Virus record (IMG/VR): IMGVR_UViG_2529292736_000009
Location: 1 to 11,200 of that record
Strand: one strand, 5' to 3'
Length of the DNA stretch: 11,200 nt
Source: a virus
Taxonomy: Duplodnaviria; Heunggongvirae; Uroviricota; Caudoviricetes
The stretch's first letter is position 1. Each line of letters begins with the position of its first letter. A program made the translations under genes and the position numbers. Positions 8,583 through 9,302 of the stretch are shown in pieces. The notes beneath the pieces are model-generated. The model was not told the DNA's origin. It searched no databases and saw only the letters and a program-made list of their open reading frames with translations.

Positions 8583-8700
8583 GCGGGTCCTTTCCGGCGA
8601 TCCGGTAGGCTACGGGGCGGCGACCTCGCGGGTTTTCGCTATTTATGAGCATTTTAAGGGGACTGGTGGTGGTTTTGTTGTTCGCTGTATCTGCATGAAT
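8583..8700 (+). other. Lambda-type cos site: cosQ-like segment (8583-8612), cosN with the 12-nt cohesive-end sequence GGGCGGCGACCT (8615-8626), and a downstream cosB-like region
   Basis: cgggtcctttccggcgatccggtaggctacgGGGCGGCGACCTcgcgggttttcgctatttatga is nearly identical to the lambda genome junction (right end ...GGGTCCTTTCCGGTGATCCGACAGGTTACG, left end GGGCGGCGACCTCGCGGGTTTTCGCTATTTATGAAAA) as I recall it; lies ~160 bp upstream of the Nu1-like gene, as in lambda. Confidence 0.8.
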
Positions 8701-8774
8701 AATAAGAGAAAAGTACAATCAATACACCAACCTGAAACAGTAATTAAGTTGTGGTATCAATGAAATTGCACCTG

Positions 8775-9302
8775 ATGAACAAAAAAAACATGGCAAAAAG
8801 TTGCCGTGTAAGCGCCACTGCGTTCGATAAGTGGGGAGTGATTCCCGTCGAGCGTAAGGGCCGCGAGGCGTTTTATGATGTCGCCAGTGTAATAGATAAT
8901 CGGGTTAACAATGCAATCAGCCAGATTACAAACGAAACGGGCGAGATTGATGATGATGAACTCCTACGAGTCAGGATCAGATTACTGACAGCACAGGCAG
9001 AGGCGCAGGAGCTTAAAAACGAGCGTGAACGCGGCGACGTTATTGATACAGCGTTTTGTATATACGTGCTTTCAAAATTGGCGAGTCAGATTTCTTCAAT
9101 CATGGATAGCCTGCCACTTGTCATGATAAGGAAGTTTCCCGATATGAAGCCGTCTATGCTGGATGGCCTGAAAAAAGAAGTTATCAGAGCCTGTAACGCA
9201 TGCGCAAAACTTGATGAAAATATCCCGCTGATGATGTCCGATTATCTGATGGAAACAACCGGAAACGTACCGGAGAAATTACGGCAACAGAAAGGTGAGT
9301 GA
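8775..9302 (+). CDS. Terminase small subunit, lambda Nu1 family
   Basis: Full-length colinear similarity to Nu1: N-terminal MNKKNMAKS...WG.P...KG.E..YD.ASVI and C-terminal LTAQAEAQELKNERERGDVIDTAFCIYVLSKLASQISSIMDSLPL...KLDENIP vs lambda [46 protein letters not shown]...ALDELIP. Start at 8775 chosen by analogy with Nu1 MEVNKK; ORF track start is 8751. Confidence 0.85.
   Translation: MNKKNMAKSCRVSATAFDKWGVIPVERKGREAFYDVASVIDNRVNNAISQITNETGEIDDDELLRVRIRLLTAQAEAQELKNERERGDVIDTAFCIYVLSKLASQISSIMDSLPLVMIRKFPDMKPSMLDGLKKEVIRACNACAKLDENIPLMMSDYLMETTGNVPEKLRQQKGE

Follow-up and report, generated by a model that had tools for sequence, protein, structure and literature searches.

By what means does a phage satellite that brings its own cos site and its own small terminase gene, and no large terminase gene, have its DNA packaged into phage particles? 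The question is raised by IMG/VR virus record IMGVR_UViG_2529292736_000009 (Caudoviricetes), of which positions 1 to 11,200 were analysed (11,200 nt, called the window below). The window corresponds to a ~10 kb satellite of the phage-inducible chromosomal island (PICI) type and belongs to the EcCICFT073 / EcCIIHE3034 family. A sequence-only reading had noticed in it a near-lambda cos site directly followed by a gene for a small terminase (TerS) related to lambda Nu1, and had proposed a switch of specificity that brings helper terminase to satellite DNA. The comparisons presented here point to a packaging module in which cosQ and cosN are of the helper type and cosB and TerS are private to the satellite. 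Judged from these sequences, the satellite TerS probably redirects the large terminase (TerL) of the helper to the island. The elements of the module are listed below, with signed positions counted from the top-strand nick (8615 being +1).

8585..8614, + strand: cosQ-like segment up to the top-strand nick, GGGTCCTTTCCGGCGATCCGGTAGGCTACG, by comparison with lambda
8615..8648, + strand: cosN, made of the 12-nt cohesive end GGGCGGCGACCT (8615-8626) and its flank
8665..8682 (+51..+68), + strand: satellite-specific cosB core, R3 equivalent, GGTGGTGGTTTTGTTGTT
8720..8734 (+106..+120), + strand: second conserved cosB block, CAATACACCAACCTG, possible inverted R2 equivalent
8760..9302, + strand: terS, full-length small terminase of the Nu1 / N15 gp1 type, 180 aa

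A lambda-type cosQ and cosN

On the cosQ side (8583-8614, -32..-1), 27 of 32 bases are those of lambda, and the 34-mer GGGCGGCGACCTCGCGGGTTTTCGCTATTTATGA at 8615-8648 is identical to lambda +1..+34 (34/34). Identity then falls to 36/86 over +35..+120 (ungapped). Both the near-identity of cosQ-cosN to lambda and the divergence of cosB after about 35 nt had been claimed from the window alone; the first claim holds and the second proves exact. The 34-mer is present in a single copy in the window and was matched in 0 of 200 shuffles, even with three mismatches. In a blastn search of 50,697 phage records, the sole matching part of the window was 8583-8662, and the matches always fell in lambdoid cos regions (91-93% identity, E down to 2e-22). 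With its cosQ and a cosN bearing the end GGGCGGCGACCT, the site is of the lambda type. Since cosN is identical to that of lambda over 34 bp across the nick sites, the large terminase (gpA) of a lambda-like helper could nick and end packaging there.

Across the family, GGGTCCTT does not vary among 17 distinct satellite cos regions. The cohesive-end 12-mers of 98 satellites are of nine kinds, the lambda-type end being found in 74 of them, the window included. Other ends accompany the same cosB/TerS, for example GGGCGTCAGGCG and GGGCGGAAGGCG (IMG/VR L026-L105, L212/L050, L217), and GGGCGGAAGGCG is also present in a lambda-Nu1-type prophage. For the Enterobacter-type cosN flank, the phage collection yielded no counterpart.

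A private cosB

The cosB region was analysed by aligning the 17 distinct cos regions and then 98 loci, from Escherichia, Enterobacter/Citrobacter, Kosakonia and Superficieibacter. A constant element emerges, composed of (GGT)3-5 ending always at +59 and followed by (T/G)TTGTTGTT, within flanking sequence that varies. In 88 of the 98 satellite loci, the ATG of terS lies 145 nt from the nick. The pattern GGTGGTGGTKTTGTT is present in ~100 satellite loci, once in each and ~95 nt upstream of terS, and is missing from all 80 loci with a helper-type TerS. The position of the (GGT)n element coincides with those of lambda R3 (+50-65) and N15 R3 (+48-60; PMC9026076), and the GTTGTT within it is similar to the core of N15 R3. 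By contrast, the R3-I1-R2-R1 elements of lambda are absent from the cosB of the window, which shows no similarity to lambda past +34, and the IHF consensus has no match at ≤1 mismatch in the satellite cosB.

The second block takes the form CAATACACC(A/C)AC(C/T)TG across satellites and is kept in most of the 17 distinct regions. It lies at the position of lambda R2 and of the inverted R3 copy of a helper prophage described below (L192, +108). An inverted-repeat test finds the known lambda R2, N15 rR2 and the inverted R3 of one helper at corresponding positions; the satellite block matches the inverted R3 core at 7/10 positions only and its R2-like role is therefore tentative. By position and conservation, the block at +106..+120 might be an inverted R2 equivalent.

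The core GGTGGTGGT (8665-8673, +51..+59) is the reverse complement of CCACCACCA (L006 21613-21621, +55..+63), the cosB core of EcCICFT073, whose packaging protein is RppA. The TerS-type and Rpp-type cores lie at nearly equal distances from cosN.

The satellite TerS

The start codon of terS is ATG 8760 according to ortholog conservation and RefSeq usage, and Enterobacter orthologs have a good AGAGG ribosome-binding site before the corresponding ATG. The product, first given as 176 aa, is therefore more likely 180 aa long. It matches Pfam Phage_Nu1 (PF07471) with 87.1 bits (cut-off 30; E 1.3e-24; profile positions 33-162/164) and aligns end to end with lambda Nu1 (residues 3-180, 38% identity, E 3e-36) and over its full length with N15 gp1 (47%, E 5e-55). 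The presence of a full-length Nu1-type small terminase right after cos is thus confirmed. The alignment reproduces the three-part layout of Nu1, with a winged-helix DNA-binding domain, a central oligomerisation region and, at the C-terminus, a TerL-binding tail as predicted roles. An identical TerS occurs at IMG/VR locus L026 (100%). NCBIfam holds no model for the protein, and a sequence search of the PDB returned neither Nu1 1J9I nor RppC, nor anything else relevant.

Identities were calculated for residues 1-50 (DNA-binding), 67-125 (central) and 126-166 (C-terminal tail):

Window TerS and lambda Nu1: DNA-binding 36%, central 51%, tail 39%
Window TerS and N15 gp1: DNA-binding 58%, central 49%, tail 39%
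Lambda Nu1 and N15 gp1: DNA-binding 32%, central 75%, tail 80%

By sequence, the DNA-binding domain is N15-like, its recognition helix and wing being near-identical to those of N15 gp1 (AFDKWGV.PVE..GRE.F.DV). Among 99 cluster representatives of satellite TerS, residues 1-50 and 61-120 vary little and residues 121-180 vary strongly, so that the DNA-binding domain and the central region are the most conserved parts in the satellite family. The earlier view of a diverged N-terminus and a kept C-terminus is therefore half right: the N-terminal domain is indeed only 36% identical to Nu1, but the last 41 residues reach no more than 39%. Nor is a kept TerL-docking surface evident, this tail being the most variable part of the protein in the family, whereas lambda and N15 share 80% of theirs.

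A coupling of the private cosB with the satellite TerS DNA-binding domain is observed in the sequences across the family. Such family-wide conservation of both would be difficult to understand if DNA recognition were not under selection.

As in phages, terS begins 145 nt past the nick. No overlapping large-terminase gene follows it in the window, whereas a true phage homolog (L016) has an overlapping TerL gene after TerS. The absence of TerL after terS is a satellite signature and no argument against homology. The protein is not an Rpp: BLASTP does not align it with RppA at E values up to 100, it has 180 aa with a Nu1-homologous tail, and it shares with rppA its genomic position alone.

Helper prophages carrying embedded relatives

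Many relatives of the island lie within lambdoid prophages, inserted in gene B (portal) or gene E (capsid). TerS proteins 91-100% identical to that of the window occur among them, one with full identity. This embedded arrangement is that of the helper-embedded PICIs (HE-PICI; PMC10111431), and it allows satellite and prophage to be compared directly. The left ends of the prophages were recovered on the same IMG/VR contigs by searches for exact satellite-prophage junctions; no contig shared with satellite loci came from scanning with the TerS of the CFT073 prophage. In 15 of the 17 cases with a recovered left end, the prophage has lambda Nu1 as its TerS (93-100% identical), and those of these prophages whose own cos was recovered have the lambda cosB.

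In one such pair (L199/L037), satellite and helper agree at 29/32 positions of cosQ and 34/34 of +1..+34, against 49/111 beyond. The two TerS proteins of the pair are 37% identical to each other. In contigs where the embedded satellite TerS is 91% identical to that of the window, the prophage has lambda Nu1 (99%) and the lambda cosB. This comparison bears out the proposal that cosQ/cosN are helper-compatible and that cosB and the TerS DNA-binding domain are not. A cosB and an N-terminal domain identical to those of a helper, named in advance as the outcome that would speak against a switch of specificity, were not found for lambda-type helpers. The proposed change of recognition stands in so far as the satellite pair is unlike that of lambda-type helpers; it is no new invention, being N15-like (58% in the DNA-binding domain, GTTGTT core).

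Two of the 17 prophages differ from the lambda Nu1 type. One of them is an E. coli lambdoid prophage (L192, 1-760, junction on the + strand) whose TerS is N15-like (identity of 49% with N15 gp1 and of 45% with the satellite TerS) and whose cosB contains GGTGGTTGTTGTTTAAT; in this cosB, R3, TGGTTGTTGTTT, lies at +50 and its inverted copy at +108. Its TerL is 94% identical to the CFT073 prophage TerL. From its sequence, this TerS/cosB pair has the appearance of a relative of the satellite module in a phage.

Cassette exchange and modularity

The ~100 related satellites come from five genera and share the same compact gene order at several attachment (att) sites. In complete E. coli genomes, the terS cassette is found in 802 of 5426, O157:H7 strains included, and the RppA-type cassette in 110 of 5426. 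The terS gene of the window occupies the exact position of rppA in EcCICFT073, just after the first cos (cos1). A TerS-type island located at the CFT073 att site (L020, 9898-10683) is ~95% identical to EcCICFT073 (L006 21601-22264) up to cos +42, unrelated to it across cosB and the gene, and homologous again at an inverted second cos (cos2). These breaks in homology identify cosB-terS and cosB-rppA as alternative cassettes bracketed by inverted cos copies. The boundaries, at cos1 +42 and at the inverted cos2, suggest that the cassettes may be exchanged via recombination between cos copies.

The second copy is decayed in the window:

9447..9525, - strand: decayed inverted second cos (cos2), forming inverted repeats I3 and I4 with cos1

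An alignment with the intact cos2 of EcCICFT073 and L020 indicates that its cosQ part is intact and its cohesive end mutated, reading about GGGGTAGCCATA instead of GGGCGGCGACCT. Because of this mutated region, the island probably has a single working cos.

A Superficieibacter satellite (L015, 10001-10504) carries a natural chimera of TerS, in which the satellite DNA-binding domain is joined to a lambda-like C-terminal half. Its central region is 75% identical to Nu1 and its tail 66% (27/41, compared with 16/41 for the window TerS), and the satellite cosB is kept. In hybrids of lambda and phage 21 TerS, cosB specificity follows the N-terminal half and TerL specificity the C-terminal half (PMC9026076). 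By its architecture, the chimera appears as the natural equivalent of the lambda-21 hybrid, from which the TerS domains were defined.

The island and its gene content

The island is inserted in the chromosome between abgR and smrA. Its other features are:

1..1230, + strand: tyrosine integrase (Pfam Arm-DNA-bind_3 and Phage_integrase), at the left end of the island, attL being upstream of the window
1429..1785, + strand: AlpA-family regulator (Pfam Phage_AlpA, E 1.3e-17)
3918-4217: DUF4222 gene (Pfam DUF4222), preceding the RepA helicase gene
4214..5629, + strand: RepA-type replicative helicase (Pfam AAA_25, E 4.8e-44)
5629..5873: putative replication origin (ori), 13-bp iterons AAAAGTGGG(G/T)AGT, six in tandem and four dispersed
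6772..7812, + strand: homolog of lambda major capsid protein E (Pfam Phage_cap_E, E 6e-41; 346 aa according to homolog annotation)
7822..8163, + strand: homolog of lambda head decoration protein D (Pfam HDPD, E 2.3e-15)
8175..8558, + strand: second AlpA-like winged-helix protein, 127 aa (Pfam Phage_AlpA, E 1.4e-8), directly 5' of cos
9322..9392, + strand: likely intrinsic terminator of the packaging operon, a long hairpin followed by a T-run, 3' of terS
9567-9851: conserved small open reading frame (ORF), 94 aa, after cos2, homologous to CFT073 C_RS07030

The island combines int, alpA, a replication module with its ori, a capsid homolog and a packaging gene over ~10 kb and in one direction, as expected of a PICI, and it is syntenic with EcCICFT073 (nucleotide identity blocks of 64-88%, the int region reaching 88%). 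No TerL, portal, tail or lysis gene was found among the island genes. Gene content, gene order and synteny thus support the proposal of a satellite rather than a prophage fragment. It is not a capsid-forming PICI (cf-PICI), which has its own portal, protease, head-tail connectors and TerL, whereas only E-like and D-like genes are present here. Nor is it an HE-PICI, its site being chromosomal with no surrounding prophage.

The alpA gene has the same position in EcCICFT073 and in L007, and its RefSeq homologs correspond to a shorter 62-aa product within ORF 1429..1785. Relatives of the 4214..5629 product are annotated "helicase RepA family protein". The iterons (Tandem Repeats Finder score 135, plus direct-repeat families) adjoin the 3' end of the helicase gene and are likely the replication origin of the island; this location has already been described for the PICI ori (PMC6092414). 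An SSB gene lies between the iterons and the E-like capsid gene, whose product is 42% identical to E of a lambdoid prophage.

The 127-aa ORF upstream of cos was considered as a possible Rpp and rejected, since it encodes an AlpA-family protein, which matches PDB 8c3t ("AlpA family phage regulatory protein", E 1.6e-10). It is kept before cos in Enterobacter, Kosakonia, Superficieibacter and HE-PICI relatives; an unrelated 137-aa protein takes its place in EcCICFT073, EcCIIHE3034 and L018-L025. The hairpin at 9322..9392 folds with -31.9 kcal/mol (z = -7.1) and was missed by a simple consensus terminator scan. The 94-aa ORF has no match in Pfam or NCBIfam.

Near the right end of the island (9858-9905), five GTGAC motifs follow each other at an exact 10-bp spacing, and a 10-bp periodic GACACAACGA-like array lies between int and alpA (1254-1300). 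These arrays may serve in the binding of integrase arms or of AlpA/excisionase. At 10395-10418 the motif GGTGTAGTTAAT is doubled, and the 36-93 bp around it have matches in both flanks of EcCICFT073, so that this is likely the attR core. The right end of the island is likely ~220 bp before smrA.

Proposed mechanism and alternatives

The reading favoured here is redirection of the helper TerL by the satellite TerS. Upon helper induction, the island would excise and replicate from its own ori. Satellite TerS would bind the satellite cosB, that is (GGT)3 TTTGTTGTT at the R3 position, perhaps together with the R2-like block, and its C-terminal half would bring helper TerL onto the adjacent cosN. 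Satellite concatemers would then be cut and packaged into helper-built particles, and the satellite TerS would not recognise the helper cosB. From the sequences we infer DNA binding, recruitment of TerL, independence from the helper TerS and interference with the helper.

Several observations weigh against this reading. The C-terminal 41 residues are poorly conserved with Nu1 and hypervariable, which leaves docking onto lambda gpA unproven. C-terminal TerS alleles show no clear association with the cohesive-end type, taken as a proxy for helper TerL; one satellite TerS allele is found inside prophages with differing TerL types, and one embedded satellite has a 12-nt cohesive end unlike that of its lambda-Nu1-type embedding prophage. 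The best conservation with Nu1, in the central oligomerisation region, also fits mixed oligomers with the helper TerS. The AlphaFold2 model is weak (pLDDT 66 overall); residues 1-45 (pLDDT 69-79) follow a helix-helix-hairpin-helix order, as in a winged helix, and a Foldseek search with this model gave nothing significant (top PDB entries the MerR-type CbpM, RacA, SoxR and MtaN, E ≥ 0.09). A literature search found no experimental study of this satellite TerS type. Finally, EcCIIHE3034 and EcCI18098 carry the same TerS type, and inducing the strains that harbour them with mitomycin did not lead to their transfer (PMC6092414).

The main rival is an Rpp-like mode, in which the satellite TerS would co-assemble with the helper TerS through the central region and the mixed complex would exchange affinity for helper cosB against affinity for satellite cosB, the contact with TerL being made by the helper TerS. 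The location of terS at the exact rppA position, the mutual replacement of the two cassettes and the peak of Nu1 conservation in the central region (51%) rather than in the TerL-binding tail (39%) are consistent with it. However, no similarity to RppA is detectable, and TerS is full length and includes a segment homologous to the TerL-binding tail of Nu1. The lambda-like C-terminal half of the natural chimera would serve no purpose if TerL were never contacted. In addition, the contact of Rpp with TerS involves residues 50-70 (PMC6739421), where the alignment of Nu1 with the satellite TerS is poor. Taken together, this mode seems unlikely.

A role mainly in interference or defence appears less probable still. 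Satellite TerS would then titrate helper TerL or poison terminase assembly, and packaging of the island would rest chiefly on the shared cosN/cosQ. PICI packaging proteins commonly block the helper too (Rpp, SaPI Ppi; PMC6739421), low-level transfer of plasmids carrying EcCICFT073 cos sites took place in the absence of Rpp as well (PMC6092414), and the hypervariable C-terminus resembles an arms-race surface. Against this, a private cosB element at the R3 position and the DNA-binding domain are both strictly conserved throughout the family, which would be hard to account for without selected DNA recognition. Interference may occur and would be compatible with either redirection or the Rpp-like mode.

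An inert remnant, the decayed left end of a lambdoid or N15-like prophage without present function, would accord with the N15-like DNA-binding domain and cosB core, with the existence of a lambdoid prophage bearing a related TerS/cosB pair (L192) and with the decay of cos2, but is very unlikely in view of the conservation and prevalence of the module, the ORF being intact, the gene order being the same in ~100 loci of five genera at several att sites, the cassette being present in 802 of 5426 complete E. coli genomes, and TerL, which overlaps TerS in true phage homologs such as L016, never following terS in satellites.

Direct redirection of TerL may extend to a wider scheme, which is put forward tentatively. 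It is possible that the module represents a third hijacking strategy besides Rpp and cos mimicry alone, where a lock-and-key pair of own TerS and private cosB recruits helper TerL directly and the helper TerS is not needed. The TerL-docking half and the cohesive end would swap freely, of which the L015 chimera and the nine or more kinds of cohesive end would be examples, and the whole cosB-terS or cosB-rpp cassette would be exchanged at the flanking inverted cos copies.

Comparison with known systems

EcCIIHE3034 and EcCI18098 were listed as E. coli PICIs encoding TerS (Fillol-Salom et al. 2018, PMC6092414); in that work the cos and TerS of EcCIIHE3034 were not analysed and the island was not mobilised. 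EcCIIHE3034 shares with the window the island architecture, cosQ-cosN, the cosB element (GGT)n TTTGTTGTT and a TerS 81% identical, near-identical over the N-terminal 57 residues. It differs by its att site (cspD-clpS instead of abgR-smrA), a D5-type primase instead of the RepA helicase, the 137-aa protein before cos instead of the 127-aa AlpA-like one, and another C-terminal TerS allele.

The cos1 and RppA of EcCICFT073 have been described (Fillol-Salom et al. 2019, PMC6739421; Murialdo and Feiss 2022, PMC9026076). This island belongs to the same satellite family and has the same gene order, a lambda-type cosQ/cosN, a non-lambda cosB, a small winged-helix gene and an inverted second cos. The two islands follow a common logic, the helper nicking site being retained and recognition privatised. 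However, Rpp proteins have 144-153 aa and no TerL-binding tail (PMC6739421, PMC9026076), and RppA (144 aa) needs the helper TerS, whereas the window encodes a full-length Nu1 homolog.

N15 gp1 is the closest phage TerS, and the N15 R3 core GTTGTTGTT resembles the satellite TTGTTGTT in a cosB made of a single R3 and a remote rR2. N15 differs in its cohesive end GGGCGGCGTCCG, in the absence of a (GGT)n run, in a GTTGTT core 9 bp nearer cosN, in an overlapping TerL gene and in a lambda-like C-terminal tail. Lambda shares with the window the identical +1..+34, most of cosQ, the R3 position, the three-part TerS layout and possibly the R3/inverted-R2 geometry; the cosB of the window is nevertheless unrelated past +34, with no R1, I1 or lambda R motifs, and gene A is not adjacent to its terS. 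The TerS of Staphylococcus aureus pathogenicity islands (SaPI) pairs with helper TerL to package satellite DNA, as is proposed for the window, but is unrelated in sequence and serves headful (pac) packaging. The HE-PICIs (PMC10111431) include close relatives of the module and differ from the window island by their location.

Significance

The likeness of the EcCIIHE3034 module, with the same cos and a closely similar TerS, and the inclusion of the small terminase among PICI core components in the SatelliteFinder study (PMC10085698) make the window a member of a catalogued family. A lambda-like cos followed by terS in an E. coli PICI belongs to a known family and principle and is unsurprising to a specialist. 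What is new is the defined cosB element, the N15-like origin of the module, the exchange of Rpp and TerS cassettes, the hypervariable C-terminus together with the chimera, and the direct helper-satellite comparisons.

The family provides a natural series for the lambda-type terminase, in which a constant DNA-binding domain and R3-like site are combined with variable tails and cohesive ends, and the module could act as an orthogonal cos/TerS pair for cosmid-like delivery. PICIs carry virulence and defence genes among Enterobacteriaceae, and to our knowledge Rpp is the sole dissected packaging mechanism of Gram-negative cos PICIs. If the satellite TerS does work without the helper TerS, helper range and the escape routes of phages would change, and the Nu1 escape mutations that defeat Rpp would be useless against it.

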